Source: Bacillota bacterium
GTDB taxonomy: Bacteria > Bacillota > UBA994
DNA length: 64,000 bases
Direction: 5' to 3'
NCBI GenBank assembly: GCA_009773495.1
Contig: WSXW01000008.1
Location: 64,050 to 128,049 of the forward strand
Shown here: piece by piece, positions 9,530-25,700 of the stretch
How the letters are laid out: each line of letters starts with the position of its first letter
Numbering within the stretch: the first letter of the stretch is position 1
Position numbers and translations under genes: made by a program
The notes under the pieces: generated by a model
What the model saw: the letters and a program-made list of their open reading frames with translations, nothing else
What the model was told of the DNA's origin: nothing
Database searches by the model: none

Positions 9530-9756
9530 AATGCCTCCAGATAAAAGTATTTTTTACTGTAATTCTTCATCGCTCCCTCTTTCCCTGCCGTGTTGGACTG
9601 TTTTTTAAGGTCCCGGCAAGAGACTGGCTAGGTACAAGGTATTGTCGGCTCTATTACAAATGTTTTGCCATGGTGCTTGTAATAGGAGAATTGGTGTTCC
9701 GCGTCGAAAGCTATAGGGAGAATGCGTACAACGAACAGAATCAGGAGGGAATTAAT

Positions 9757-11041
9757 TGTGCATGACGAAGCAGAAATCTCCTTGCGTGAAATTATCGAGG
9801 TACTACTAAAGTTTAAAGGGCTAATTGCCTTAGTCACAGCATCGGCAGTTTTAGCCGCCAGCATCGCTGTGTTCTGGGTAATAGAGCCCAAGTATGAGGC
9901 AGAAGCCAAATTGATCGTTGCAGACTTTAAGCCCAGCACTGAAGCCATTAGTACCGATTTAGTAGGCGGGCTTCCCATCTATCCTGATTTCACTATAGAT
10001 AGCTACCGAGAGCAGTTAAAGAACCCAGAGGTCATGGAGAAAGTCCTAGCGGAACTTAATCTTAGTGAATTAGGTTATACCGTCTCCTCACTATCTAGGG
10101 CCGTCTCAGTCGAAGCGATTAGGGGCACCAATCTTATTAAGATCAAAGTAAGAGATGGCTCCCCAGAGCTAGCCGCCCAAATAGCCAATGCCCTTGCCTT
10201 AAACTTTACGGAGTTCATTACTACGCTAACCCAAGAACAGGCCAGCAAGACCTTGGACCTTCTAGAAGAGGCGTTGCTCATCCAAGATGCCAATCTTAAT
10301 GCAGCTCAGTTAGCATATTCCAACTTCCTAAAACAACCTAATGGAGTAGCAGAGCTTGGGAGCGAGATATCGTCCAAAATTTCACAAATAACCTCCTTCA
10401 AGAGCATTCTTGCTCAGCTTGAGATTGACATAGCGGTCGAAACAGCCGCTCAGCTTTCCACCCAGGCACAGTTGGCGCAAACCGAGCGATACTTATATAC
10501 TACAAAGACCATTGTAGACGATCCCGTGCTTTACAACCTGGTGCAAGGTCAAGAAACCACTGGTGGAACAGCCCTGCTTGAGGTCAAGAGCCAAGAGCAC
10601 AATCCATTATATTTAAGCTTACAAGCAGGTCTCAGCACGAGAGTAACAACTCTAGCTCGTTTACGTGCACAAAACAAAGATACGATAGCTAGATTAACGC
10701 AACTCCAAGTCCGTCTGGAAACACTTCAGGTCGATCTAGCAGATAAAACCTATCAGGCGGAGTTACTACAGAGGAACGTAGCCGTGGCTCAGAAGAGCTT
10801 TAATACATACATAGATAGGCGCGAAGAAGTTCGTATCGCCCAATCTGCCAAGCTAGGCGAGGCGGCAGTAGTCATTTCATCGCGTGCTGTGGCACCCATA
10901 GTGCCAGTGTCGCCAAAGAAACTGCTAACGTTGGTCGTCGCAGCATTCGCAGGTATGATGATAGGTGTCTTTTCCGCTTTTCTCAAGGGTTACTGGGATG
11001 CCACGACTCCCGCTGGCCGTTCTCGCCCAGTGGTTGGCTAG
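9757..11041 (+). CDS. Wzz-like polysaccharide chain-length determinant protein (no kinase domain seen)
   Basis: About 428 aa with N- and C-terminal TM helices and a long coiled periplasmic region. The N-terminus EISLREIIEVLLKFKG resembles the Wzz consensus. A strong RBS (aggagg) precedes the GTG at 9757; the ORF track starts at 9722. Confidence 0.7.
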
Positions 11042-11124: not shown

Positions 11125-11721
11125 TTGAGTATGGCTGATGAAGTTACCATAAGGAGAACAGTTAGAGACTACTTAAAAGTTAAGCGAATTATAGATATGG
11201 TTCTCTCACTGATAGGGTTAATAGTCTTGTCACCGCTATTTTTAATTACCATACTTGCTATAAAGCTTGACTCCACAGGACCTATACTGTTCACACAAAA
11301 GCGCATCGGGATACATAAGTGTCATTTTAATATATTAAAGTTCCGTACCATGAGGATAGATACACCTAAAGACACACCAACTCATCTACTTGAAAATCCA
11401 GAACAGTACATCACAACTGTGGGTAAATTTCTGCGAAAGACGAGCCTTGATGAGTTGCCCCAGATTATTAATATACTGTGTGGAACTATGTCAATAATCG
11501 GTCCCCGCCCCGCTCTATGGAATCAGTATGATTTAATTGCGGAACGAGACAAATATAGTGCTAATGATGTGCCACCAGGGCTCACAGGTTGGGCGCAGAT
11601 AAATGGTCGAGATGAACTTCCTATTGAGGTTAAGGCCAAGCTTGATGGGGAGTATGTTGCGAGAATGAGCTTTATATTGAAGGTGGGACTGGAACGACAG
11701 GGAAGACGGATGTCTGCATGA
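11125..11721 (+). CDS. sugar phosphotransferase (PglC/WbaP C-terminal-type, initiating undecaprenyl-phosphate glycosyl-1-phosphate transferase)
   Basis: 198 aa with a single N-terminal TM helix and the bacterial sugar-transferase core (KRIIDMVLSLIGLIVLSPLFL, PGLTGWAQING). Confidence 0.8.
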   Translation: MSMADEVTIRRTVRDYLKVKRIIDMVLSLIGLIVLSPLFLITILAIKLDSTGPILFTQKRIGIHKCHFNILKFRTMRIDTPKDTPTHLLENPEQYITTVGKFLRKTSLDELPQIINILCGTMSIIGPRPALWNQYDLIAERDKYSANDVPPGLTGWAQINGRDELPIEVKAKLDGEYVARMSFILKVGLERQGRRMSA

Positions 11722-11740: not shown

Positions 11741-12553
11741 ATGAAGAAGATACTTGTGACGGGAGCAGATAGTTACGTAGGGACGGCTTTTGAGAGATGG
11801 CTTTCACAGTATCCTGATGAGTATTCTGTCGATACCATTGATATGAGGGATAATGTTTGGCAAGACAAGCCCTTTGAAGCGTATGATGTGGTACTTCATG
11901 TAGCTGCAGTTGTTCATAAAAAGGAAAGCCCTAAAATAGAAAGTATATATTTAAAAGTGAATGTAGATTTGCCAGTTGCCGTCGCTAAGAAAGCTAGGGC
12001 GGCAGGGGTAAGACAGTTCATTTTCATGAGTACGATGGCTGTTTACGGCGAAGAAGGTGAGATCGGTCATGAGGTAATTATCACTAGAGACACTACACCC
12101 AATCCTAAGACGTATTACGGGAAGAGCAAACTTGCAGCTGAATATGAGCTGAACAAGTTGGCTAATGAAAACTTCAAAATTCTGGTCTTAAGACCCCCTA
12201 TGATTTATGGGTCAAATTGTCCTAGCAATTACGCTAAACTGGTGAAGCTAGCAAAATTAACGCCTATTTTTCCTATGATTGAAAATAAGAGAAGCATGTT
12301 GTATATTGATAAACTATGTCAACACCTCAAGGGGCACATCGATAAGGAATCTAAAGGATTGTTTTTTCCACAAGACAACGAGTACTGGAACACAAGCTTG
12401 CTGGTGAAGAAGCTTGCTGAGCAAAGTGGCAAGAAGATTTACTTGTCTGAATCAATGGGGTGGTTGATAAGGCTCATTGGTGCCCGATCAGGGGTAATAA
12501 AAAAAGTTTTTGGTAATTTGGTGTACGAGCGCGAAGAGGCGGAAAATGGCTAA
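11741..12553 (+). CDS. NAD-dependent epimerase/dehydratase family protein (sugar-nucleotide reductase; substrate unknown)
   Basis: 270 aa with a Rossmann N-terminus (VTGADSYVG). Sits in the glycan locus; AT-rich. Confidence 0.6.
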   Translation: MKKILVTGADSYVGTAFERWLSQYPDEYSVDTIDMRDNVWQDKPFEAYDVVLHVAAVVHKKESPKIESIYLKVNVDLPVAVAKKARAAGVRQFIFMSTMAVYGEEGEIGHEVIITRDTTPNPKTYYGKSKLAAEYELNKLANENFKILVLRPPMIYGSNCPSNYAKLVKLAKLTPIFPMIENKRSMLYIDKLCQHLKGHIDKESKGLFFPQDNEYWNTSLLVKKLAEQSGKKIYLSESMGWLIRLIGARSGVIKKVFGNLVYEREEAENG

Positions 12554-12572
12554 TAAAATGGCTCACTGTTAT

Positions 12573-12710
12573 GACCATAGACCCTAGCCTTACAGGTTGC
12601 ACTCCGCTAGACTTGATTAAGTCCCTAGAGAAACACAACATCGAATCCCGCCCAGTGTGGAAGCCCATGCATTTACAACCGGCTTGTGCCTACCTTCCGG
12701 GTCCAGTCTG
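12573..12710 (+). pseudogene. DegT/DnrJ/EryC1/StrS aminotransferase C-terminal remnant (about last 45 codons only)
   Basis: Translation LDLIKSLEKHNIESRPVWKPMHLQPACAYLPGPV* matches the conserved C-terminal ...R..Y.P.HLQPAY motif of sugar aminotransferases. No upstream body is present. Confidence 0.55.
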
Positions 12711-12899: not shown

Positions 12900-13670
12900 A
12901 TGAAAGTAGTTATTCTAGCTGGTGGATTCGGAACTCGGATTTCTGAAGAAACGCACCTCAAACCAAAGCCCATGATTGAGATAGGTGAAAAACCGATCTT
13001 ATGGCACATCATGAAGATTTATAGTTATTATGGTTTCAACGAATTCGTCATATGCCTAGGGTTTAAGGGGTATGTCGTCAAAGAGTATTTTTATAACTAT
13101 TTTTTGCATAACTGCGACGTCACTTTCGACGTTCGAACACAGGGGATGGAGATACACCAAAACTCGGCCGAGCCCTGGCGGGTAACGCTAGTCGATACAG
13201 GTCCAGCTACCATGACGGGTGGACGTGTGAAACGGATTAAGCCATACGTCAAAAATGAGACTTTCATGCTCACTTATGGAGATGGGGTTGCTGATATAAC
13301 TATCCCTGCCCTGCTAGAGTTTCATCGCCGCCATGGCAAGATGGCCAGCGTAACGGCTGTGCAGCCATCAGGCCGTTTCGGAGCGATGCATATAAGTGAA
13401 GACCAAATGGTGCAGGCATTTCAAGAAAAGCCTGAGGGAGATGGCGGCTGGGTTAACGGGGGTTTTTTCGTGTTCGAACCTGGCGTTTTCAACTATATCG
13501 ATGGAGATCAGACCATCCTTGAAAGAGACCCACTTGAGAAGTTAGCTACTGACGGACAGCTTCAAGCTTATAAGCACGCGGGGTTTTGGCAGCCGATGGA
13601 CACTCTGCGCGATAAAACTCGCTTGGAGGAATTATGGCAAAACAATAAAGCCCCTTGGAAGGTGTGGTGA
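12900..13670 (+). CDS. rfbF: glucose-1-phosphate cytidylyltransferase
   Basis: 256 aa with the N-terminus MKVVILAGGFGTRISEETHLKPKPMIEIGEKPILWHIM characteristic of RfbF/DdhA. RBS gaggagg. Confidence 0.85.
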   Translation: MKVVILAGGFGTRISEETHLKPKPMIEIGEKPILWHIMKIYSYYGFNEFVICLGFKGYVVKEYFYNYFLHNCDVTFDVRTQGMEIHQNSAEPWRVTLVDTGPATMTGGRVKRIKPYVKNETFMLTYGDGVADITIPALLEFHRRHGKMASVTAVQPSGRFGAMHISEDQMVQAFQEKPEGDGGWVNGGFFVFEPGVFNYIDGDQTILERDPLEKLATDGQLQAYKHAGFWQPMDTLRDKTRLEELWQNNKAPWKVW

Positions 13671-14800
13671 GCAAGATGGTATCACACGCAAGGCGACAAC
13701 TTTTTGATGACATCTACCGGGGCAAGACGGTCTTAGTCACGGGGCATACCGGCTTCAAAGGCTCGTGGCTAGCATTGTGGCTGCATTCGCTGGGTGCCAA
13801 AGTGGTTGGGTATGCATTGGAGCCGCTCACGGACCCAAGCATGTTCAACGCCATAGACCTACCCACGAAGATTACTCACATAATCGGAGATGTGCGTGAT
13901 TTTGGTCACCTTTCTGCGGTCATGGAAACCCACCAGCCGCAGATTGTGTTCCATCTGGCAGCACAGCCACTGGTACGCTTGTCCTACCGTGAGCCTCAGC
14001 TAACATACGAGACTAACGTGATGGGCACAGTCAACCTCTTGGAAGCTGTCCGCCGCACATCCAGTGTGCGAGTCGTCGTGAATGTCACCAGCGACAAGTG
14101 TTACGAAAATAAGGAATGGGATTACAGCTATAGGGAAAATGATCCCCTGGGCGGCTTCGACCCCTATAGCTCCAGCAAGGGTTGCGCCGAGTTAGTGTCA
14201 GCGTCCTATCACAGGTCTTTTTTTAACAATCCAGATAGTGTACACATGGCCTCGGCGCGGGCCGGAAATGTGGTTGGCGGTGGAGACTGGGCCTCAGATC
14301 GCATCGTTCCGGATTGCATACGTTCGTTGCAGAGCAGCGCGCGAGTTGTTTTGAGAAACCCTCAGGCGATTCGCCCTTGGCAACACGTTTTGGAGTCACT
14401 TTCAGGGTATCTTTGGTTGGGGAATCTGCTCTGGGTGAAAGGGCATGCGTACAGCGGTCCGTGGAATTTCGGCCCCGAACCAGGAGGCAACATCACAGTC
14501 CAAGAAGTGGTGGAGAAGATTATCAAGCACTGGGGAGAAGGCGCCTGGGGTGGAGACGCGGACACGAGTCAACAACTTCATGAGGCCAAGTTTTTAAAGC
14601 TCGACTGTACGAGGGCCAATAATCTCTTAAAGTGGTTTTCGGTTTATGATATCGAACAGACTTTACGGGTGACAACCGCCTGGTACCGAGCATACTACTG
14701 CAGCCACGGTAAGATGTGGGAACACTCACTCAGGGACATCGAGGAGTATGTGGAAGCGGCATCAGTGAAGAAACTGGCTTGGGTTGGTAAAACACTTTGA
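13655..14800 (+). CDS. rfbG: CDP-glucose 4,6-dehydratase
   Basis: 381 aa SDR-family protein (LVTGHTGFKGSWL, YSSSK) located directly after rfbF. Confidence 0.85.
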   Translation: MEGVVSKMVSHARRQLFDDIYRGKTVLVTGHTGFKGSWLALWLHSLGAKVVGYALEPLTDPSMFNAIDLPTKITHIIGDVRDFGHLSAVMETHQPQIVFHLAAQPLVRLSYREPQLTYETNVMGTVNLLEAVRRTSSVRVVVNVTSDKCYENKEWDYSYRENDPLGGFDPYSSSKGCAELVSASYHRSFFNNPDSVHMASARAGNVVGGGDWASDRIVPDCIRSLQSSARVVLRNPQAIRPWQHVLESLSGYLWLGNLLWVKGHAYSGPWNFGPEPGGNITVQEVVEKIIKHWGEGAWGGDADTSQQLHEAKFLKLDCTRANNLLKWFSVYDIEQTLRVTTAWYRAYYCSHGKMWEHSLRDIEEYVEAASVKKLAWVGKTL

Positions 14801-14824
14801 TAAGAATTTCAGGGAGGAAGACGA

Positions 14825-16207
14825 TTGCAACGACTAAATAACGAACAACCGAACAGCCAGCATATGAGCCGAGAACAATTAAACGTGGCACAACTAAGGC
14901 AAGAGATTCTTGACAAAGTGGCGCACTATTACGACTTGGCGTATGCTACGAAAAACTTCTTCGTTCCCGGGCAATCCCGCATTCCTTACGCAGGTCGGGT
15001 TTTCGATGCGACCGAGATGGTCAATCTCGTTGATTCAGCCCTTGAGTTTTGGTTGACACATGGCCGTTTTGCCCAAGAGTTTGAAGCCAAACTAGCCACT
15101 TTTCTGGACGTAAAATACTGCTGCTTGGTCAATTCCGGATCATCGGCTAACCTGCTGGCTTTTATGGCTTTGACGGCCGACAATCTAGGGCGAAGAAAGA
15201 TCGAGCGCGGAGATGAAGTAATCACCGTCGCGGCCGGTTTTCCCACCACAGTGACCCCCATTATTCAATATGGTGCCATTCCTGTATTTGTCGACATCGA
15301 ACTTGCTACGGCAAATATCGATGTTACCCAACTGGAGTCGGCCTTGAGCAAAAAGACCAAGGCTGTGATGATCGCCCACACTTTGGGCAACCCCTTCGAT
15401 ACTCGGGCGGTAGTGGATTTTTGCCGGAAACATGATTTGTGGCTGATCGAAGACAATTGCGATGCCTTGGGGTCGACATACGAGGGTAAGTACACCGGTA
15501 CATTCGGCGACATCGGAACCAGCAGCTTCTATCCTCCCCACCATATGACGATGGGAGAAGGGGGAGCGGTCTACACCAAAAACCCGCTACTTGCCAAGAT
15601 AATCTTGTCCATGCGAGATTGGGGAAGAGACTGCGTCTGCCCGTCAGGCGTTGATAACATGTGCGGTCATCGCTTTGATCGGAAGCTTGGGGAACTCCCC
15701 CTCGGCTATGACCACAAGTACGTGTACTCACACTTGGGCTACAACTTAAAGGCGACGGACATGCAGGCGGCTGTGGGTTGTGCGCAGTTGGATAAATTGC
15801 CGTCTTTCATATCCGCCCGTCGAAGAAACTGGAGGTTATTGCGAGACGCTCTGACCGACTTGTCTGATGTGTTCATCCTTCCAGAAGCTACCAGGGGTTC
15901 AGACCCAAGTTGGTTTGGCTTCTTACTCACGGTGAGAGAAAATGCGGGTTTTACGAGAGACCAAATTGTGAAGCATCTTGAATCACGAGGGGTACAAACC
16001 CGAATGCTGTTTGCCGGCAACCTCATTAAGCACCCGTGCTTTGATGGGCTGAGATCCAGGGGTGAGGGATATAGGGTGGCAAGCGAACTCCGCAACACCG
16101 ACGCAATAATGAATCAGGCGTTTTGGGTAGGGGTTTATCCGGGGATGACGGAAGAGATGGTCCAGTATATAGCTAAGAGTATTAGAGATCTTGCTTGGGG
16201 TGATTAA
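14825..16207 (+). CDS. ddhC: CDP-6-deoxy-D-xylo-4-hexulose-3-dehydrase (E1; PMP-dependent DegT-fold with [2Fe-2S] motif)
   Basis: DegT-fold protein in which His replaces the PLP lysine ([14 protein letters not shown]). Exact C-X57-C-X1-C-X7-C spacing (DNCDAL...[14 protein letters not shown]), counted by hand. TTG start with RBS gggagga. Confidence 0.85.
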
Positions 16208-16212
16208 ATGAC

Positions 16213-16776
16213 ATGCGCATCGAGAGTACAGTGATCCCTGACTGCTACGAAATGCATCCCGTGATCCACACAGATAAGCGCGGCGTTTTTGTAAAGACAT
16301 TTTACGAAGACTTCTTCGCCAAGAACGGGCTGAAAACGAGCTTTGCGGAGGAATACTATTCGTGTTCATGGCGAGGCGTTCTCAGGGGGTTGCACTTTCA
16401 GGCCCCCCCCCACGATCATACCAAGTTGGTTTTCTGCGTATTAGGTGAAGTTCTTGATGCCGTTGTTGACCTCAGGGTTGGTTCTCCCACATACGGTAAG
16501 TTTGAAACGTTCAGGCTAAGTGCCCAGAAGGCAAACATGATCTACGTTCCTCAAGGGTTAGCGCACGGCTTTTACGTACTGAGCGAAAGTGCGATACTTA
16601 TGTATAAAGTAACGACCATACATTCGCCCGAGCATGACACAGGCATCCTCTGGAGTTCAGCCGGAATACCTTGGCCGTGCCTAAACCCCATAATGTCAGC
16701 CCGAGACAGCATGTTTCCACCATTAGCAAGTTTCGTTAGCCCGTTCAAATATTACTTCGGTTCCGGAGGTGAGTAG
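16213..16776 (+). CDS. dTDP-4-dehydrorhamnose 3,5-epimerase-like cupin (AscE-like sugar-nucleotide epimerase)
   Basis: 187 aa RmlC-fold protein (GVLRGLHFQAPPH, QGLAHGFYVLSE). Confidence 0.75.
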   Translation: MRIESTVIPDCYEMHPVIHTDKRGVFVKTFYEDFFAKNGLKTSFAEEYYSCSWRGVLRGLHFQAPPHDHTKLVFCVLGEVLDAVVDLRVGSPTYGKFETFRLSAQKANMIYVPQGLAHGFYVLSESAILMYKVTTIHSPEHDTGILWSSAGIPWPCLNPIMSARDSMFPPLASFVSPFKYYFGSGGE

Positions 16777-16779
16777 CAC

Positions 16780-17679
16780 ATGAATCCAAGAAAGGCCCTC
16801 ATTACGGGTGGCACGGGGTTTATTGGGTCTGCTTTATGTAGGCGCCTAGTGACCGATGGCTGGGATGTCCATCTGGTTGTGAGAAACGAATCTGCCTTAT
16901 CTCAACTTGATGGTATACTCGATCGGGTAACCTTGGGTGTTCACGATGGATCGACAGAAGGGATACAGGCCATTCTCCGGAAGGCGAAGCCGACAACGGT
17001 CTTCCACCTGGCATCCTTGTTTCTCGTCGAGCATAAACCAGCAGATATTGAAGCTCTTATTAAAAGTAACATTGTTTTTGGCACTCAGTTAGTGGAGGCA
17101 ATGGCGGCCAATGGTGTCTATGAACTGGTGAATACTGGGACATCTTGGCAGCATTTTGAGAGTCACGAATATGATCCAGTCTCCCTCTATGCTGCCACGA
17201 AACAAGCTTTCGAGAGCATTCTAACCTTTTATGTTAAAGTAACGCCTCTGCGTGTGATAACCCTAAAGCTGTTTGACACTTATGGACCTAACGACCCGCG
17301 CAATAAGCTCTTTAGCCTGCTACGACGCGCGGCGAAAACTCAAGTTCCTCTAGCTATGTCCCCTGGGGAACAGCTTGTGGATCTAGTGTATTTGGACGAC
17401 GTAATTGAAGCCTATCTTGAAGCGGCCCGTAGACTGAGCGACCCAGAGGTGCAGCAGGAAGCTTACGCGGTCTCCTCGGGGTGTCTTATTAGGCTAAAGG
17501 AGCTAGTGCAAATTTATGGCAGGGTAACAGGGATCCCGGTACCTGTTGAGTGGGGTTCTCGTCCTTATCGATTTCGTGAAGTGATGATTCCGTGGCACAA
17601 GGGGCTACCCTTGCCGGGATGGTTACCGAGAACCAACATCGAAGAGGGAATCAGAAGAATGGAGGGGATTTGTCGGTGA
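16780..17679 (+). CDS. NAD-dependent epimerase/dehydratase (candidate CDP-4-keto-3,6-dideoxyhexose 4-reductase, AscF/RfbS-like)
   Basis: 299 aa SDR-family protein (ITGGTGFIGSAL, YAATK) located directly after the E1 and epimerase genes. Confidence 0.65.
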   Translation: MNPRKALITGGTGFIGSALCRRLVTDGWDVHLVVRNESALSQLDGILDRVTLGVHDGSTEGIQAILRKAKPTTVFHLASLFLVEHKPADIEALIKSNIVFGTQLVEAMAANGVYELVNTGTSWQHFESHEYDPVSLYAATKQAFESILTFYVKVTPLRVITLKLFDTYGPNDPRNKLFSLLRRAAKTQVPLAMSPGEQLVDLVYLDDVIEAYLEAARRLSDPEVQQEAYAVSSGCLIRLKELVQIYGRVTGIPVPVEWGSRPYRFREVMIPWHKGLPLPGWLPRTNIEEGIRRMEGICR

Positions 17680-17784
17680 AGTGCCTCAAACCGTTAGTTA
17701 CAGTGGCCATTCCCACCCGCAATCGGGCTAACTACTTGCGGGAGGAACTCTGTCTTGGCCACCGTTCCCCGCAAAAGTGAAGCG
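17678..17784 (+). pseudogene. GT2 glycosyltransferase N-terminal remnant (about 34 codons)
   Basis: VKCLKPLVTVAIPTRNRANYLRE is a typical GT2 N-terminus, followed by a stop. The body is missing and an IS remnant follows. Confidence 0.4.
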
Positions 17785-17930
17785 GCACCCTTCTTTTTGA
17801 AGTATTTATGGCGGCACTACGATCAAAATTAGCACATTTTTGCTAAGGGGGCTCATTGCGCTGAAAAACAAAGACATTTGTCCACCCCAAAAATGGGGTT
17901 TGACAGACCCTAGAAACTCCTGTAAACCAT

Positions 17931-18611
17931 AAAATGGTTATCCATTTTACTCAGGTTGAGAAAACCCTTATAATTAGAGCATGAGAGAATATCCAATGAC
18001 ATTTGGTGAGTCTATCAAGCAATTTATGACAGAAGAACAATGCCGGGACTATCTTTACAGTTTAAGATGGCCAGATGGGTTTGTCTGTCCAAAATGTGGA
18101 CTGCATACAACGGCGTGGCCTGTGAGAAAAGTCTTGTATGAGTGTTCTGCCTGTGGTCATCAGGCATCTGTAATAGCTGGCACGGTTTTTCAAGATACCA
18201 GAAAGCCTTTGAGAGAGTGGTTTATAGCCATATGGTGTGTGTCCACGCAAAATAATGGGACAAGTGCAAATGGCTTACAGCAGGTTCTGGGTCTTAGGAG
18301 TTATCAAACGGTGTGGACTTGGTTGCACAAAATCAGAACAGCTATGGTCAATCCGAATCGTGCAAAATTAGCGGGTGATGTTGAAGTTGATGAAACCTAT
18401 ATTGGCGGGCTAGAAACTGATGGCAAACGCGGCAGAGGAACTGAAAACAAGGTTCTTGTTGCTATAGCTGTTGAACTCGTGACCAAAAACCTAGGGAAAA
18501 AGGAAAGAAGGACTATTACTGGAAAACGCTATGCAGATTTCTCCGACAACCTACAAAGACCTGATAAATCATGATTTTTAGCACTTACCTGAGTGAAGTG
18601 GATAACCATTT
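17931..18611 (+). mobile_element. internally deleted IS1595-family insertion sequence remnant (about 681 bp) with 26-bp terminal inverted repeats
   Basis: Left IR aaaatggttatccattttactcaggt (17931-17956) matches the reverse complement of the right IR (18586-18611; 23/26). Carries a truncated transposase ORF. Confidence 0.6.
17981..18574 (+). pseudogene. IS1595-family (ISXO2-like) transposase, C-terminally truncated (197 aa)
   Basis: Has an N-terminal zinc-finger (CPKCG...CSACGH) and conserved FQDTRKPLREWF / VEVDETYIGG motifs. The ORF is too short to contain the complete DDE domain expected of the family. Confidence 0.65.
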
Positions 18612-18998
18612 TAGCTATAATTAGCAAAAGGGGTATCCGCTTAGCTCCACCTCACGGACAACCGTGCCACCAAAAGGCGACTATTGCGGTCAAAACTGGT
18701 TCAATCTCCCACTTTCGGTGGGGTAGTCGCGTTTTTAGGAACACACGCTCCACAGGAGGAACTAAACGGATGATCCCCTATTATTGCTATTGGGGCTGTC
18801 TTTAAGGTTCATCAACTATTTTGTTGTTGGCTAGCGGCGTACTGCTTACGGGCTTTATCCTTGAATTCTTACAGGTACGACCTACGGTCCGAAAATGCTT
18901 TTCGGTGATATTTCCCTGGGTATGCAGAGATTGCGGGTTATCGGGCTTTTTTTGCCTGGTTTTCGTGGAGGAATATTCTGGATGCTTCAGACAGAGAG

Positions 18999-19892
18999 AT
19001 GGTCTCCAAAGTGGTGCAATTTATGGCAATAGCCGAGGGAGCGCAGGTTAAAGTGCCTAAAGTAAGCGTGTGTATACCAGTCTATAATGGTGAGCTATTC
19101 ATTGGCGAGGCGATTGATTCAGTTCTCAAGCAGGATTATGATGCTATTGAAATCATAGTGAATGACAATGCCTCCACGGATAAGACAACAGATATTGTGC
19201 GTTCTTATATTTTACTTCAGCCGGATAAGATTCGGCTATACGAAAATGAGAGCAATATTGGGATGGCCAATAATTGGAATAAAGTTATAAATAAATCGAC
19301 CGGTGATTACTTTGTCCTACTTAGTGCCGATGACACACTTAGACTAGGCATGATCCGCAGATGCATGGCTGTGATGGACGCATCGGTTGATGCTGTCAGC
19401 GTAGACCATTTTATTCAGGAAAGCCATGGTCTCAGGCTGCGGCGAGTTAAAATAAAGTCCGGCGAATATACAAACTGTGCCTCACTTATCATGATGAAAA
19501 ACCCATTCTCTATCAACTTTACGATATTTAACCGCTCCCGTGTGTGTGAAAAAATTGATTGCAGAAACTTTTTTTCTGTTACTTATCAAACATGTGATTA
19601 TGATTTATGGCTGCGGTTGGCATTAAGCGGTGCTACCATAAAATATATAGATGAACCCTTAGGAGTATATCGCGTACACGACACAAATCTGTCACACGAT
19701 AGACGAAAAATGAGACGGCAAACCTCGCTTGTTATTTTCAGGCACAGCGCTATTTTGCGTGAAAAAGCATGTCTGCCGTATAAGCTGACACTCTTTCGTT
19801 TTTTGATAAGAGTGATATATGATACAATATTGGTGAGGGGATTTGATAGTCGTCATTTCAAGATATTATTGCAAAGGCTGATATGGAGATAG
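18999..19892 (+). CDS. glycosyltransferase family 2
   Basis: VSVCIPVYNGELFIGEAIDSVLKQ...IVNDNASTD. The true start is possibly the ATG at 19023. AT-rich. Confidence 0.8.
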   Translation: MVSKVVQFMAIAEGAQVKVPKVSVCIPVYNGELFIGEAIDSVLKQDYDAIEIIVNDNASTDKTTDIVRSYILLQPDKIRLYENESNIGMANNWNKVINKSTGDYFVLLSADDTLRLGMIRRCMAVMDASVDAVSVDHFIQESHGLRLRRVKIKSGEYTNCASLIMMKNPFSINFTIFNRSRVCEKIDCRNFFSVTYQTCDYDLWLRLALSGATIKYIDEPLGVYRVHDTNLSHDRRKMRRQTSLVIFRHSAILREKACLPYKLTLFRFLIRVIYDTILVRGFDSRHFKILLQRLIWR

Positions 19893-19916
19893 TATGATAC
19901 CGGAGGGGTCTGAAAA

Positions 19917-20954
19917 ATGAGCATTAAGCTTTCTATTTGTATTCCTACTTACAACAGGTCGTCTTTTCTTACGTTTGCAGTAAATACAATAGGGCCGCAA
20001 TTGACAGACGGTGTTGAGATAGTGATTTCCGATAACGCTTCGTCTGATGACACTCAGGCTGTGGTCGGGGAACTGATGCAGCGATGGCCGGCGATCAGGT
20101 ATGTAAGGCAGGATCAAAATGTTGGCCTTGACCGTAATCTGCTTTATCTTGTAGAACAGGCCAGAGGCGAGTATTGCTGGTTTGTCAGTGATGACGATGG
20201 TTTTTGTGAGGGTGCTATCAGCACAATGCTTGGCGCTCTAGGCGATGGTTGTGATGTCTATATTTGCGGGACTAAAGGGCATTCCAGAGAAATGGCGTAT
20301 ATAGAAGACGACTTCCCTTTAAACGGCGATGGCAAGACTTTTGATCTTTCTGACCGGCGCCAGATGCTTGATTTTCTCAAATCTGCCAGAAGGCCTCCAT
20401 TTTCTTTCATTAGTGTGCTGTGTTTCAAGCGAGAAAAGTGGCTGTCGGTTCTGGACAAAAATGCTATGGTCGGGACTGTGTTTAATCATGTTTATTGTGT
20501 ATTTGCCATGGTTCAGAGCGGTCTTCTATTAAGATATGTCAATAAACCTTTGGTTATATTCAGAGCCGGCAACTGTGGATTTGGCAAAACTGGAATGGTC
20601 GAAAGATTTCTTGCTGATATAGGGGCATATATTCAAGTTGCAGAAAGATGTTTTGCACAAAAAAAAGATGTTCAAGAACTTCTCGTTTCCTTAGTTGCCC
20701 GTCAACATCCCATTTATAAATTGGCGTTTATGTTTTACCTTGCTAACTCCAAGCAAAAAGCACGGCTTAAGCAGGTTGTTAAGCGTGTTTATGGAAAGCG
20801 TGTGTATTACAGTAGCAGGTTTATGTCGCAGTTAGGCTCATTCTGGGTTATAATGTATTTTATAAGACAATGCGTTGTGTTGAAAAATGATGTTGAATTT
20901 GTTGAACTCTGGCGATCAGTTCGCGGCACTGCAAATAATCAAGGGTGGCATTGA
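19917..20954 (+). CDS. glycosyltransferase family 2
   Basis: LSICIPTYNRSSFL...IVISDNASSDDT. Confidence 0.8.
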   Translation: MSIKLSICIPTYNRSSFLTFAVNTIGPQLTDGVEIVISDNASSDDTQAVVGELMQRWPAIRYVRQDQNVGLDRNLLYLVEQARGEYCWFVSDDDGFCEGAISTMLGALGDGCDVYICGTKGHSREMAYIEDDFPLNGDGKTFDLSDRRQMLDFLKSARRPPFSFISVLCFKREKWLSVLDKNAMVGTVFNHVYCVFAMVQSGLLLRYVNKPLVIFRAGNCGFGKTGMVERFLADIGAYIQVAERCFAQKKDVQELLVSLVARQHPIYKLAFMFYLANSKQKARLKQVVKRVYGKRVYYSSRFMSQLGSFWVIMYFIRQCVVLKNDVEFVELWRSVRGTANNQGWH

Positions 20955-20978
20955 ACATAAAGAAAGAGGATAGGCAAT

Positions 20979-22367
20979 ATGGAGATTACATTAATTGGAT
21001 TTATTTTAATGCCTTTTGGTGTCCTGTTGTTTTTATTTAAACCGGGCTGGCTATTTTATTCATTTATATTTTTTATACCGTTTTTTGCCACTGCTGTCCT
21101 TAATGTGCAGAGCATTTCCTTTGGCGTTACTCCCGCACATTTTTTTGCCTTGCTCTGGGTTACAAGAAGGATTATTGATAATTTAACGGGGAAAGCTTTT
21201 TATCTCCATAAGAAAAGCAACGTTGTCCTTGGCTCATTGCTGTTGTTTCTGTTTGTTATTTCTCTGTCCCTGATAATGCCGGTTGTAATCGCAGGCGAAA
21301 CAGAGGTTTATAAAGGTAATCCTTTAATGCTTGCTCCTGTTGCTCATGAATTTACTTTTAGCAATGTTTCCGTATTTTTGTTTCTGGCGTTTGCTGTTCT
21401 GATGACGATATTTGTTTCTTTGGAAATAAATAGTCCAGAAAAATTTAAACGCTCCATAAAAGTCTTTTTAATATCAGCATTTACAGTAAGCATCTGGGGT
21501 TTCTTGCAATTGCTGACTCACTATGCCGGCCTACCTTATCCTGCTTTTCTGTTTAACAACAGCATCAGCGATGCTATTGTGTCAGGACCGATTGCTGAAG
21601 CGGAAGGAGCATCAAGGATCTTTTCCGTTACTCCGGAGCCCTCGGTGTTTGCCCGTTACTTGCTGGCGGGTTTACCTTTGGCTTTAATTCTGATGATAAA
21701 AAAGATAAAGGTTTTTAGCAGCGCTTTTATTTTACCTTGTTTTGTTTTTGCTTATATCTTGGCATTAATCCTCACCGTTTCTACCTCGGCCTACTTTGGT
21801 CTGGGTTTTATGGCCATAGCAGCATTTTTCTTTTTAAGAAGATATAAGGATTTAAGCCCTTTTTTAAGAATAGCTGCGATGTTTCTATTGGCTTTAGGGG
21901 CGGTTGTTTCTGTTAATCCGGAGATGTTTGATAATACTTTGCAAATGACTGTTTTTAAAGCACTGACTTTTTCAGGAATGGAAAGAATCTTTGCTTTCCA
22001 GGAGGCGTTAGGACTGTTTTCAGCATATCCTTTGCTTGGCGTTGGCTGGGGCAGCAATGCTTCATTTGACCTGATAAGTTATCTATTAGCAAATAGCGGC
22101 CTATTTGGCGCTCTTTGTTTTGCTTTGTTTGTGTTGTCAGCCTATAAGCACTTTCGTTGGTTACAAAAAAATAACAATATAGGATTTGAAACCAAAGCAT
22201 ATACAGACGGCATAGGTTTGAGTTTATTGACAGGTATATTTTTAAACTTAACAGGAGGACTTGACTTAGTGTTCTTACATCTTTGGTTTTTATTGGGGTT
22301 GATGCTTTCTTTGTCTAAAATTATAAGTCTGCAAACTACTAAAGATAGAGGTTACAATGAAATATAA
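20979..22367 (+). CDS. Wzy-like O-antigen polymerase/ligase-family integral membrane protein
   Basis: 462 aa with at least 10 TM helices and a central periplasmic loop, positioned between GT genes. Confidence 0.6.
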   Translation: MEITLIGFILMPFGVLLFLFKPGWLFYSFIFFIPFFATAVLNVQSISFGVTPAHFFALLWVTRRIIDNLTGKAFYLHKKSNVVLGSLLLFLFVISLSLIMPVVIAGETEVYKGNPLMLAPVAHEFTFSNVSVFLFLAFAVLMTIFVSLEINSPEKFKRSIKVFLISAFTVSIWGFLQLLTHYAGLPYPAFLFNNSISDAIVSGPIAEAEGASRIFSVTPEPSVFARYLLAGLPLALILMIKKIKVFSSAFILPCFVFAYILALILTVSTSAYFGLGFMAIAAFFFLRRYKDLSPFLRIAAMFLLALGAVVSVNPEMFDNTLQMTVFKALTFSGMERIFAFQEALGLFSAYPLLGVGWGSNASFDLISYLLANSGLFGALCFALFVLSAYKHFRWLQKNNNIGFETKAYTDGIGLSLLTGIFLNLTGGLDLVFLHLWFLLGLMLSLSKIISLQTTKDRGYNEI

Positions 22368-23376
22368 GGTTGTTCTCATAACCGGGTCATATCCGCCTGA
22401 TACCTGTGGAGTAGGTGATTATACCGCATCACTTGTGGCCGCCTTGCAAAAATGTGGGACCAATGTTGAAGTTCTGCACAATCATAAATGGCATCTATCC
22501 TGTTTAAATCAGATTATTAAACATTTAAATTCTCTCAAACCTGATATTGTGCATATTCAATATCCAACAGTAGGTTATGGAAATAGTTTAACACCCCATA
22601 TATTAAGCCTTTTTAAAAACAAGGTAATTACGATACATGAAATCAGCCAAGCACATATTCTGCGCAGATTGTCGTTGTATTTTTTTTCCATGCGATCGGA
22701 ACACTTAATATTCACCAATCAGTTTGAACTTGATTATGCAAAAAGATGGGCGCCATGGATATCAAGACGCGCAAGTGTTATACCCGTTGGAAGCAGTATA
22801 CCAGCCGGTCACGCATCTAAACGAGATATTAAAGATATTATTTACTTTGGCTTGATAGGTCCCAAAAAAGGTCTCGATGATTTTTTGAGCCTAGCTACAT
22901 TAATTAAAAAGGAAAATCTGAATCTGCAGCTTCGCATCATAGGCTTGCCAAATCCAAAGTGGCCTGACTATCTTGAGTACATTTATAAGAAAGCCGGCAA
23001 TCTGCCTATATCACTGGAAATCGGTTTGCCAGAAAGAGATGTTGCTCAGTTACTATCACGTGCACAAATTGCTTATATGCCATTTCCTGACGGAGCGTCC
23101 GAGCGTCGGACATCATTAATGGCACTTTTGATTAATGGTGTAGCGACTATTACGACTTATGGGAAGCACACCCCTGAGAATTTTAAGAAGGCAGTTGCTT
23201 TTGCCCAATCTCCGGAGGATGCACTGGCGATAATTAAAAAACTCACTACTGATGCCCAGGAACGAGAAACCTTATCTATTAATGGAAAGCGGTGTGCTGA
23301 AAGTTATAGTTGGGATAATATTGCTCAGAAGCATATACAAATTTACGAAATATTTTTCTCGAAAAGTCTGAGATGA
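22357..23376 (+). CDS. glycosyltransferase (GT4/GT1-like)
   Basis: 339 aa with a GT-B pattern (Rossmann-like halves; FPDGASE). Confidence 0.65.
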   Translation: MKYKVVLITGSYPPDTCGVGDYTASLVAALQKCGTNVEVLHNHKWHLSCLNQIIKHLNSLKPDIVHIQYPTVGYGNSLTPHILSLFKNKVITIHEISQAHILRRLSLYFFSMRSEHLIFTNQFELDYAKRWAPWISRRASVIPVGSSIPAGHASKRDIKDIIYFGLIGPKKGLDDFLSLATLIKKENLNLQLRIIGLPNPKWPDYLEYIYKKAGNLPISLEIGLPERDVAQLLSRAQIAYMPFPDGASERRTSLMALLINGVATITTYGKHTPENFKKAVAFAQSPEDALAIIKKLTTDAQERETLSINGKRCAESYSWDNIAQKHIQIYEIFFSKSLR

Positions 23377-23411
23377 TTCATAATTAACATGTGAAAGGAT
23401 AGTCATAATAT

Positions 23412-24536
23412 ATGAAAGTTCTTCAGATATCCAAACTATATTTCCCTCATATCGGCGGCGTGGAGAAGGTTGTGCAGGACATCGCTGAAGGCTTGGCGAA
23501 TAAAGTCGATATGAATGCCCTTGTTTGTCAACCAAAAGGGAAAGGAAAAAGGGAAATTACTAATGGCATCAGGGTTATACGAGCAGGCAGCTTTGGAATT
23601 TATTTTTCTATGCCTGTTTCTTTAAGCTTTCCGTTCATATTAAAAAAAATAGGCAAAGAATTTGACATATTACATTTTCATATGCCGTTTCCTTTAGCCG
23701 ATTTATCTTATTTGTGGGCAAAGCCACAAGGGAAGGTCGTTGTTTGGTGGCATAGCGATATTGTGAAGCAAAGGAATTTGTTGAGAGTCTATAAGCCATT
23801 CATGATGCGATTCTTAAATAAAGCGCACAAAATCATTGTTGCTACACCTCGGCATATAGAAAGCTCCCCTTTCTTAAAAAATTTCAGAGATAAATGCGTA
23901 GTAATCCCTTTCGGAATAGATTTAACCCGATTCAGATTGAACGATAAGAACAGAGAAAAAATCATGAGTATTGGTGATATGTATGGCTCAAAAATAATCT
24001 TATTTGTTGGAAGGCTTATTTACTATAAGGGCGTGGAGTACCTTGTTGAGGCAATGAAGAAAGTTGACGCCAAATTGCTATTAGTTGGTGAGGGGCATTT
24101 AAAAGAGAGTTTAATCAACTTAGCAGATAAGATTGGGATTAGAGACAAGATTGTTTTTATAGGCAGGATTGATGACGAAGACCTCATTCATTATTATCAT
24201 GCCTGCAGTGTTTTTGTACTGCCTTCTATTGCCAACAGTGAGGCATTTGGGATTGTTCAGCTTGAAGCAATGGCATGTGGAAAGCCTGTAGTAAACACTG
24301 AGCTTCCTACCGGTGTTCCGTGGGTTAGTGTTCATGGAGAAACTGGTATCACGGTTCCTCCAAGAGACTCATCGGCATTGGCTGACGCTCTAAACGTTTT
24401 GCTCAACGATGCAGATTTGTGTGAGAAATATGGCCAAAATGCCCGAAAAAGAGTGGAAGAAGAATTTACGATGGAATTGATGATGGATAGAATTTTATCA
24501 GTTTATAAGCAGGTGACAGATAATAAAACTAAGTGA
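23412..24536 (+). CDS. glycosyltransferase family 4
   Basis: 374 aa GT4 protein (LFVGRLIYYKGVEYL, LPSIANSEAFGIVQLEAMACGKPVV). Confidence 0.8.
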   Translation: MKVLQISKLYFPHIGGVEKVVQDIAEGLANKVDMNALVCQPKGKGKREITNGIRVIRAGSFGIYFSMPVSLSFPFILKKIGKEFDILHFHMPFPLADLSYLWAKPQGKVVVWWHSDIVKQRNLLRVYKPFMMRFLNKAHKIIVATPRHIESSPFLKNFRDKCVVIPFGIDLTRFRLNDKNREKIMSIGDMYGSKIILFVGRLIYYKGVEYLVEAMKKVDAKLLLVGEGHLKESLINLADKIGIRDKIVFIGRIDDEDLIHYYHACSVFVLPSIANSEAFGIVQLEAMACGKPVVNTELPTGVPWVSVHGETGITVPPRDSSALADALNVLLNDADLCEKYGQNARKRVEEEFTMELMMDRILSVYKQVTDNKTK

Positions 24537-24547
24537 GGTGTTATATC

Positions 24548-25606
24548 ATGAAAAAGGCATTAATCACAGGCATCAGGGGTCAGGACGGAGCATATCTGGC
24601 TCAATTATTGCTTGAGAAGGGCTGCGAGGTTTACGGTGCTGACAGAAGAAGCGGGGATTCTGGCAACTGGAGATTGAAGGAACTTGGCATCGAAAAAGAT
24701 GTAAAGATTGTTTACATGGATTTATTAGAGCTTACTAATATTATGCGGGTAATTGAAAAAATAAAGCCGGATGAGGTCTATAACCTTGCAGCTCAGAGCT
24801 TTGTGCAGACAGCCTTTGAACAGCCGATCCTCACATCCGATATTGATGCAATCGGGGTTTTAAGACTCCTTGAGACAATAAGGACAATAAAACCTGACGC
24901 TAAATTTTATCAGGCTTCTTCAAGCGAAATGTTTGGAAGGGTTCAGGAAACACCTCAAACTGAAAAAACACCATTTTATCCAAGAAGTCCTTATGGAGTA
25001 TCTAAGCTTTTCGGGCATTGGATAACCGTCAATTACAGAGAATCTTATAATATGTTTGCATGTTCTGGAATTTTATTTAATCACGAGTCCCCATTAAGAG
25101 GCTTAGAGTTTGTAACGAGAAAGATTACATATGGTATAGCAAGGATAAAATATGGTCTTCGTGACAAAATTGTTCTTGGCAATTTAGATTCTAAAAGGGA
25201 CTGGGGATTTGCAAAGGAATATGTAGAAGGAATGTGGCTGATGCTACAGCAGGAAGGGCCAGATGATTATGTTTTAGCAACGAACGAAGCGCACAGTGTA
25301 AAAGAGTTTGTTGAGAATGCCTTCAAAGCTGCTGAATACAGTATTGCATGGGAAGGTGAAGGCGTAAATACAAAATGTATAGATAAAAAAACAGGAAAGA
25401 TTTTAGTAGAGATTTCACCTGAATTTTACAGACCAGCAGAGGTGGATATACTAATCGGCGACCCATCAAAGGCAAAAGAAAAGCTCGGTTGGAAGCCTGT
25501 AACTAAATTTGCGGATTTAGTAGGAATTATGGTTGAGGCTGACTTGGAAAAAGTTGGTATGGAAAAAAGGACAGGCTATTTTAATGAAACTGGTGGGAAT
25601 AGATAG
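24548..25606 (+). CDS. gmd: GDP-mannose 4,6-dehydratase
   Basis: MKKALITGIRGQDGAYLAQLLLEKG and ASSSEMFG motifs. RBS gaggtg. The ORF track starts 15 nt earlier. Confidence 0.9.
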   Translation: MKKALITGIRGQDGAYLAQLLLEKGCEVYGADRRSGDSGNWRLKELGIEKDVKIVYMDLLELTNIMRVIEKIKPDEVYNLAAQSFVQTAFEQPILTSDIDAIGVLRLLETIRTIKPDAKFYQASSSEMFGRVQETPQTEKTPFYPRSPYGVSKLFGHWITVNYRESYNMFACSGILFNHESPLRGLEFVTRKITYGIARIKYGLRDKIVLGNLDSKRDWGFAKEYVEGMWLMLQQEGPDDYVLATNEAHSVKEFVENAFKAAEYSIAWEGEGVNTKCIDKKTGKILVEISPEFYRPAEVDILIGDPSKAKEKLGWKPVTKFADLVGIMVEADLEKVGMEKRTGYFNETGGNR

Positions 25607-25700
25607 GGATTGCACAGTCCGGCCGGGGGAAGCGCACTCCTAGGCTTAGTGCGGAGGGCGGTAATGAAACGAAGGCTGGCAGCAAGTTAGGAGGCAAAAA

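Follow-up and report, generated by a model that had tools for sequence, protein, structure and literature searches.

Positions 12900-17679 of the DNA analysed here (64,000 nt of a Bacillota genome, referred to as the window) hold an intact five-gene cassette for a CDP-linked 3,6-dideoxy sugar, whose genes are already in public annotation. With a probability of roughly 55%, we read it as one operon for a CDP-activated 3,6-dideoxy-L-hexose that has no dedicated E3 reductase and takes its electrons from housekeeping low-potential carriers. All five genes lie on the forward strand. The first two, immediately upstream of E1, are rfbF/ddhA (glucose-1-phosphate cytidylyltransferase, 12900..13670), which scores 448 bits against the TIGR02623 equivalog (cut-off 300) and is 62% identical to Salmonella RfbF, and rfbG/ddhB (CDP-glucose 4,6-dehydratase, 13655..14800), with 485 bits against the TIGR02622 equivalog (cut-off 278) and 50% identity with Salmonella RfbG; together they place E1 in the context of CDP-glucose enzymes. 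Public gene calls start rfbG at 13667 (377 aa). The predicted E1 gene (RfbH/DdhC, a PMP- and [2Fe-2S]-dependent CDP-4-keto-6-deoxyglucose 3-dehydrase, 14825..16207) is followed after 5 nt (16208-16212) by an RmlC-fold (cupin) CDP-sugar epimerase (16213..16776; PF00908, 188 bits; TIGR01221, 165 bits) and, after another 3 nt, by an extended-SDR NAD(P)H-dependent oxidoreductase (16780..17679; PF01370, 125 bits). The gene identities and the tight operon described in the original prediction are confirmed by the TIGR02623, TIGR02622 and NF011936 profile matches and by these short spacers. An Rfam scan of the window gave no matches, and a promoter and terminator scan returned sites no more numerous than in shuffled sequence.

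Within the window we found no E3. Pfam scans and precomputed annotation, covering essentially all ORFs of at least 150 aa in the 64 kb, returned no Fer2, FAD_binding_6 or NAD_binding_1 domain, and tblastn and phmmer searches with Salmonella RfbI (taken from a plasmid-collection record), Sphingomonas E3 and E. coli Fre gave no match there. As controls, RfbI and the Sphingomonas E3 found each other at ~1e-60, and Fre found RfbI at 3e-24. A regex scan detected no ferredoxin-type Cys motif in any credible ORF of the window, and no gene for a Fer2/FNR-type E3, a ferredoxin or a flavodoxin lies anywhere in the 64 kb. We also considered whether a second SDR (11741-12553) or any of the remaining genes could substitute for E3 and rejected them all, as none has a flavin or Fe-S electron-transfer domain. 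The E3 gene that is encoded with E1 in the canonical two-component system (EC 1.17.1.1) is thus absent from the whole 64-kb window, in agreement with the earlier claim that none lies in or near the cluster.

That absence had been presented as remarkable, a view that comparison with other loci does not sustain. E3 homologues were absent from the available flanks (1.57 Mb) in 92 of 94 distinct E1 loci, 65 of them with flanks of 5 kb or more to the left and to the right, and the only matches were in Salmonella and Sphingomonas; 80 genome loci were fetched by peptide patterns from the window E1, which biases the sample to its own clade and away from enterobacterial-type E1. Beyond Salmonella RfbI and the Sphingomonas E3, the E3 probes matched nothing in 100 loci totalling 1.74 Mb, and a regex for plant-type ferredoxin and FNR motifs over all loci, run before a positive control existed, found nothing. 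On plasmids, the 30 best records with E1 include 27 in which tblastn (E <= 1e-35) finds nothing like E3 on the whole replicon. Because so many comparable loci are also without a nearby E3, a missing linked E3 is ordinary, and these data suggest that most E1 gene clusters outside Enterobacterales have none. In addition, SpnQ, a homologue of E1, reportedly dispenses with E3 and draws on ferredoxin or flavodoxin, each paired with its reductase (PMC8987622). The second option of the original prediction, that another reductase substitutes, is supported and is the one we consider most likely.

Of the 80 species-representative genomes whose E1 is nearest to that of the window, about 60 belong to Clostridia/Lachnospiraceae, and the gene set is therefore common in Firmicutes, rather than being of a Gram-negative type and unusual in such a host as first proposed. 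An identical five-gene module without E3 is present in Moorella naiadis and Fodinisporobacter ferrooxydans (CP089291.1), and the E3-less module also occurs on two JGI metagenome contigs, in Sulfuriferula sp. AH1 (CP021138.1) and on a Qipengyuania plasmid, with E1 retained together with the epimerase and the SDR in every copy seen, across four phyla. The module appears to move between phyla without E3, a pattern expected if the cassette can function as soon as it enters another host. A search of the open literature found no paper on 3,6-dideoxyhexoses in Firmicutes or on a CDP-type E1 working without E3. An alternative is that the genome encodes a dedicated DdhD/AscD-type Fer2-FNR reductase at some other site, away from the cluster. 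Our search covered the window, which is a small part of the genome, and E3-type proteins do exist outside Enterobacterales, as on a Sphingomonas plasmid (37% identity with RfbI). However, E3 is the first gene of the same operon in both E3-bearing loci examined (Salmonella and Sphingomonas), the same is reported for Yersinia (review PMC5399914), and the flank and plasmid counts, together with the apparent travel of the module without E3, argue against an unlinked partner, which we consider unlikely.

The E1 protein matches NF011936 (RfbH) as a full-length equivalog (742 bits, cut-off 423, residues 20-455 covered), shares 55.7% identity with Yersinia E1 (3BCX) and 53.9% with Salmonella RfbH, and is 100% identical to a MAG protein that NCBI lists under the name CDP-6-deoxy-D-xylo-4-hexulose-3-dehydrase. 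Its start codon is TTG, preceded by a GGGAGG Shine-Dalgarno sequence, and an in-frame ATG lies at 14864. The segment with the cluster ligands and the active site (15458..15664, forward strand) contains, by script, C212 (nt 15458-15460), C270, C272 and C280 (nt 15662-15664), spaced C-X57-C-X1-C-X7-C, and SFYPPHH at residues 234-240, with H239 (nt 15539-15541) in the place of the Lys. Against the Yersinia structures 3BCX (wild type) and 3BB8 (H220K) the alignment needs no gap: the four cysteines coincide with C193, C251, C253 and C261, and H239 stands opposite H220 in the former and K220 in the mutant, so that both the Cys pattern and the His-for-Lys substitution had been read correctly. Since the four Cys and both His are conserved in every one of the 88 homologues aligned, the motif reflects conserved homology and not chance. 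The exact X57 spacing, previously taken as diagnostic, was rejected as the mark of a special subclass: depending on the homologue, C1 and C2 are 57, 58 or 61 residues apart, through an indel of 1 or 4 residues located after C1 and before the His, and only the ligands themselves are invariant. From its sequence, E1 is predicted to bind PMP and a [2Fe-2S] cluster and to deoxygenate C3; a His occupies the PLP-Lys position of DegT-type aminotransferases. Comparison with the JGI orthologue gave a dN/dS of 0.125, indicating purifying selection; against Moorella, pN is 0.11 and synonymous sites are saturated. The invariant Cys and His residues and the purifying selection therefore indicate that a cluster-dependent function is maintained without a linked E3.

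For the window epimerase, the best solved match is WbcA (6.6e-46), and all dTDP-specific RmlC enzymes rank below it, which fits a CDP-sugar substrate; judged by eye against what we take to be the RmlC motifs, it has the His of RGLHFQ, a Lys, the Tyr of YK and an Asp. The SDR is 24% identical to Salmonella abequose synthase, its PDB matches are weak and GalE-like, and its orthologues, found at ~60% identity in many phyla, all carry generic names. We infer that the epimerase acts as an AscE-like 5-epimerase of CDP-4-keto-3,6-dideoxyglucose and the SDR as an AscF-like C4 ketoreductase. Of the earlier description of these genes as AscE/AscF-like, the folds stand by HMM (PF00908/TIGR01221 and PF01370), and the specific labels are to be read as tentative, no close characterised relative of the SDR having been found. 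The product of the cassette could be ascarylose or its C4 epimer.

Both sides of the module bear signs of decay. Downstream, where a family-2 glycosyltransferase gene usually comes after the SDR, a relic of it (17676..17780, forward strand) retains ~25 homologous N-terminal codons before the ORF stops at 17780; over 25 aa it is 84% identical to the GT2 of a JGI contig, whose gene overlaps the stop of the SDR there, and it also matches the Moorella and Sulfuriferula GT2. Beyond it lies a degenerate IS1595-family element (17930..18613, forward strand; NF033547, PF12760 and partial PF12762) with 27-nt inverted repeats at 17930-17956 and 18587-18613 and a truncated 197-aa transposase ORF (17981-18574). 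At the 5' junction, a relic of a DegT-type aminotransferase C-terminus (12556..12700, forward strand) was recognised by eye from its translation, ...LDLIKSLEKHNIESRPVWKPMHLQP..., with no upstream ORF. The phosphoglycosyl transferase gene has a 58-nt deletion relative to a sister assembly. Given the truncated GT2, the IS remnant and this deletion, the sugar may no longer be displayed in this strain.

Such decay would also suit an idle E1 or a locus falling apart, in which the epimerase and the SDR act on CDP-4-keto-6-deoxyglucose to give a CDP-6-deoxyhexose, on the model of the WbcA/WbcB (6-deoxygulose) or AltA/AltB (6-deoxy-L-altrose) routes. WbcA, the closest solved relative of the epimerase, acts on CDP-6-deoxy-D-xylo-4-hexulose, and a ddhA-ddhB-altA-altB route bypassing E1 is described in the Yersinia review (PMC5399914). 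Against this, E1 has an undamaged ORF that lacks none of the catalytic or ligand residues, it is under purifying selection, and it is kept with the epimerase and the SDR in all module copies; we judge an idle E1 improbable. Similarly improbable is a ColD-like reaction, in which dehydration would be followed by enamine hydrolysis with PMP regenerated from glutamate and no external reductant, because although ColD is homologous, has the same His-for-Lys change, needs no reductase (PMC8987622) and provides the next-best PDB matches after E1, it has no [2Fe-2S] cluster (PMC8987622), whereas the four ligand Cys are present here and invariant in the 88 E3-less homologues, the window protein scores 529 bits against E1 and 200 bits against ColD, and E1 had no transaminase activity under conditions where SpnQ did (PMC8987622).

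Under the reading that we favour, with E1 active and reduced by general carriers, RfbF would form CDP-glucose and RfbG would convert it to CDP-4-keto-6-deoxyglucose. E1 would then bind this sugar as a PMP Schiff base, and proton abstraction by H239 would expel the 3-OH, leaving a delta-3,4-glucoseen-PMP adduct to be reduced by two single electrons passing through the predicted [2Fe-2S] cluster of E1 (C212/C270/C272/C280). The cupin epimerase would invert C5 and the SDR would reduce the 4-keto group, yielding a 3,6-dideoxy-L-hexose of the ascarylose type or its C4 epimer. By analogy with SpnQ, a housekeeping ferredoxin or flavodoxin, with its own reductases, most likely reduces the E1 cluster. 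We infer rather than show what donates the electrons, in which order and with which stereochemistry the last two steps run, and which sugar results. We know of no CDP-specific E1 orthologue shown experimentally to work with generic donors, and Chen, Ploux and Liu reportedly described in 1996 a specific interaction between Yersinia E1 and E3, which counts against such donors. The sugar would probably be destined for a Wzy-dependent surface polysaccharide, because the operon is surrounded by Wzz, phosphoglycosyl transferase, GT, Wzy and O-antigen-ligase-like genes.

In textbooks and pathway databases, E1 is described as needing E3 as a second protein to deoxygenate C3. If most E1 clusters are without E3, rule-based annotation would falsely flag a pathway hole. 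We see an even chance that E3 is a lineage-specific add-on of Enterobacterales and a few Proteobacteria, and that most CDP-type E1 enzymes, including that of the window in its probably anaerobic Bacillota host, take electrons from housekeeping ferredoxin or flavodoxin. If so, the rfbF-rfbG-E1-epimerase-SDR(-GT2) cassette would be exchangeable across phyla with no partner needed, and 3,6-dideoxy-L-hexoses would be common yet chemically undocumented in the surface glycans of Clostridia. The 3,6-dideoxyhexoses are regarded as rare Gram-negative antigens; the survey implies that many gut Clostridia probably make them. For the window itself little changes: its genes are recognisable and already in public databases as annotated entries.

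Among known systems, the Yersinia pseudotuberculosis asc/ddh genes (DdhA-DdhB-DdhC(E1)-DdhD(E3) with AscE/AscF) and Salmonella rfbFGHI have the same rfbF-rfbG-E1 order, and their E1 enzymes have cluster ligands and a catalytic His identical to those of the window. The RmlC-fold epimerase and the SDR after E1 are as expected for an L-series 3,6-dideoxyhexose and give the CDP-ascarylose gene order. In contrast to Yersinia and Salmonella, where the Salmonella E3 gene directly precedes rfbF, the window has no ddhD/rfbI/ascD and its host belongs to the Bacillota. The Sphingomonas hengshuiensis plasmid NZ_CP010837.1 has the same rfbF-rfbG-rfbH-epimerase-SDR order with 44-62% protein identity to the window but, unlike it, carries a Fer2-FNR E3 gene just ahead of rfbF; on the related plasmid of Qipengyuania spongiae the module comes without one. 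The WbcA pathway (6-deoxygulose) runs without E1, whereas the substrate of the window epimerase would be expected to be already 3-deoxygenated, with only C5 epimerisable. SpnQ (TDP-4-keto-2,6-dideoxyglucose 3-dehydrase of the spinosyn pathway in Saccharopolyspora spinosa), likened here by description, also combines PMP, a [2Fe-2S] cluster and the His substitution with no dedicated E3; it acts on a TDP-2,6-dideoxy sugar within a secondary-metabolite cluster of an aerobic actinomycete, whereas the window enzyme is found with CDP-glucose enzymes in a surface-polysaccharide locus. Finally, ColD (GDP-4-keto-6-deoxymannose 3-dehydratase of the colitose pathway) shares the fold, the His in place of the PLP Lys and C3 deoxygenation without E3, but it works in a GDP-mannose-derived context without an Fe-S cluster and with PMP from glutamate (PMC8987622), whereas the window E1 has all four ligand Cys and lies in an rfbF/rfbG (CDP) operon.

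The 3-dehydrase gene (E1/RfbH, 14825-16207; NF011936, 742 bits against a cut-off of 423) is the third of five genes on the + strand, following rfbF (12900-13670; TIGR02623, 448 bits) and rfbG (13655-14800; TIGR02622, 485 bits) and preceding genes for an RmlC-fold epimerase (16213-16776; PF00908, 188 bits) and an extended SDR (16780-17679; PF01370, 125 bits). Because neighboring genes overlap or are at most 24 nt apart, with only 5 nt after E1 and 3 nt after the epimerase, the five form one operon. By script, the window E1 (numbered from its TTG start) contains C212-X57-C270-X1-C272-X7-C280 and SFYPPHH at residues 234-240, so the cysteine motif counted by hand in the original prediction was right. 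Identity to Yersinia pseudotuberculosis E1 is 55.7%, and the motif segment aligns without gaps to 3BCX (wild type) and 3BB8 (H220K mutant), placing the four cysteines on Yersinia C193/C251/C253/C261 and H239 on H220. All four cysteines and both histidines are invariant in 88 of 88 aligned E1 homologues, taken from the fetched loci, while the spacing between the first two cysteines is 57, 58 or 61 through a small indel, and thus the exact X57 is not diagnostic in itself. Judged from these alignments, the motif is conserved homology, not chance; a 100% identical NCBI MAG protein already bears the name CDP-6-deoxy-D-xylo-4-hexulose-3-dehydrase.

The E3 reductase was sought with Salmonella RfbI and a Sphingomonas E3 (phmmer and tblastn) and with E. 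coli Fre (phmmer), which itself matches RfbI at 3e-24. Among 100 fetched loci (1.74 Mb, including the entire window), these probes match only the Salmonella and Sphingomonas loci. No Fer2, FAD_binding_6 or NAD_binding_1 domain was found by Pfam scans of essentially all window ORFs of at least 150 aa or in precomputed Pfam annotations of sister contigs, and the window holds no ferredoxin or flavodoxin gene. The predicted lack of E3 is therefore borne out within the 64-kb window. The second true E3, 37% identical to RfbI over its whole length, comes from a plasmid of Sphingomonas hengshuiensis (NZ_CP010837.1), where it lies upstream of the same five genes. This plasmid and one from Qipengyuania spongiae (NZ_CP092472.1) share an rfbF-rfbG-rfbH-epimerase-SDR-wzx-GT2 block with 36-74% protein identity over the seven genes; E3 is directly upstream of the block in the former and absent in the latter, making them a natural pair for asking whether E3 is dispensable.

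E1 homologues are abundant, with at least 8000 in a database search (the 120th best match still 69% identical) and at least 595 relatives when one genome per species was scanned. In the best 80 of the latter, about 60 of which are Clostridia, mostly Lachnospiraceae, and the others Geobacter/Desulfuromonadales, Nitrospira, Cetobacterium, Actinobacteria and others, the rfbF-rfbG-E1 core is kept in every locus (80/80) and none (0/80) has E3 in its flanks. These loci were selected by peptide patterns from the window E1, a choice that favors its own clade; a plasmid tblastn sample is free of this bias, and 27 of its 30 best E1-bearing records have no E3-like gene (E <= 1e-35) anywhere on the replicon. 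Overall, E3 is present in 2 of 94 distinct E1 loci, 65 of which are flanked by 5 kb or more on each side. The exact module without E3 occurs in Moorella naiadis (80% identity for E1, about 64-65% for the epimerase and SDR), two JGI contigs (89%, 96% and 94% for E1, epimerase and SDR), Sulfuriferula sp. AH1 (Betaproteobacteria; gene order shared up to and including the GT2 that comes next), Fodinisporobacter ferrooxydans (Bacillota) and the Qipengyuania plasmid (Alphaproteobacteria). The absence of E3 is thus real, but it is not remarkable as originally thought, being the normal state in the clade and having a published precedent in SpnQ; nor, with some 60 of the best 80 relatives in Clostridia, is the 3,6-dideoxyhexose gene set unusual for a Firmicute. 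More generally, most CDP-type E1 enzymes may work with no E3 of their own, and 3,6-dideoxyhexoses may be widespread products of Clostridia; the remaining interest lies in this generality, if true.

Since the potential of the E1 cluster is near -210 mV, ferredoxins of the clostridial type should be able to supply it with electrons, and unrelated reductases could partly stand in for E3 in vitro. An idle or ColD-like E1 is argued against by cluster ligands that are invariant in E3-less homologues, a dN/dS of 0.125 against the JGI orthologue and a pN of only 0.11 against Moorella, where synonymous sites are saturated; ColD has no cluster (PMC8987622). For SpnQ, ferredoxin/ferredoxin reductase or flavodoxin/flavodoxin reductase pairs serve in place of E3, and transaminase activity, seen with SpnQ, was not observed for E1 under the conditions tried (PMC8987622). 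Given the retained ligands, the selection on E1 and the SpnQ precedent, the best-supported mechanism would be ordinary E1 chemistry with electrons supplied by housekeeping carriers.

The surrounding surface-polysaccharide locus (+ strand, 9.7-27 kb of the window) has Wzz (9722-11041), a Bac_transf phosphoglycosyl transferase (11125-11721) and a 270-aa RmlD-like SDR (11741-12553) upstream of the module, all on the + strand, and an IS1595 remnant, two GT2 genes, Wzy, two GT4 genes, GDP-mannose 4,6-dehydratase and ManC downstream. The RmlD-like SDR may be the 4-reductase that goes with the last two (24533-27146), and the glycan probably also has a GDP-derived 6-deoxyhexose. Downstream of the locus are genes for a 1275-aa protein (35689-39516), in which Glucodextran_B and Cu_amine_oxidN1 domains occur, and for an 874-aa S8 peptidase (41552-44176); both are probably cell-surface proteins of the host Bacillota.

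The module has the look of a cassette inserted into a mosaic locus that is decaying. The 347-nt 'intergenic' region upstream of rfbF, at the module's 5' edge, holds an ORF fragment typical of a DegT-family sugar aminotransferase C-terminus (12556-12700, +; ...LDLIKSLEKHNIESRPVWKPMHLQP...), followed by a second fragment resembling a glycosyltransferase N-terminus, and both look like relics at the insertion junction. At the 3' edge are about 25 N-terminal codons of a GT2 (17676-17780, +), which follows the SDR in related modules, and, starting about 180 nt past this relic, a 684-bp IS1595-family remnant (17930-18613, +) with 27-nt inverted repeats around a truncated 197-aa transposase ORF. Uneven dS against one JGI contig (L085; about 0.9 for rfbF and rfbG, 0.49 for E1, 0.06 for the epimerase and 0.15 for the SDR) points to recombination inside the module. 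Relative to an otherwise 100% identical sister assembly, 58 nt are missing from the phosphoglycosyl transferase gene (junction about 11675). The loss shifts the reading frame at the C-terminus, leaving 198 aa instead of 223 aa, and reflects either strain variation, a possible inactivation, or a difference between the assemblies. GC is 0.38-0.43 over the GT2/GT2/Wzy/GT4 genes (18000-24000) versus about 0.5 elsewhere in the window, as is typical of serotype-specific regions that are exchanged horizontally.

Many Clostridia loci have other genes after E1 in place of the epimerase and SDR, including a thiamine-pyrophosphate enzyme, acetolactate synthase-like by eye (26 loci), an ORF cluster taken by eye as LicD-like (23 loci) and GT2 (45 loci). 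In Desulfobaculum and Methylovirgula the genes after E1 are transketolase-like. These arrangements hint that the 3,6-dideoxy intermediate may give rise to branched-chain (yersiniose-like) sugars or other derivatives. For the window epimerase, the match to WbcA, its closest solved relative, outranks all dTDP RmlC enzymes, which fits a CDP substrate, and, judged by eye, it appears to have the His, Lys, Tyr and Asp of RmlC enzymes. Since only C5 is epimerizable once the sugar is 3-deoxygenated, the enzyme can reasonably be given a putative AscE-like role. For the SDR, no characterized protein is a close relative; it has 24% identity to abequose synthase, weak GalE-like PDB matches and orthologues about 60% identical in many phyla, all with generic names. 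With an AscE-like epimerase and such an SDR, the predicted product is a CDP-3,6-dideoxy-L-hexose of either C4 configuration, and the AscE/AscF label is a functional analogy with the Yersinia ascarylose pair.
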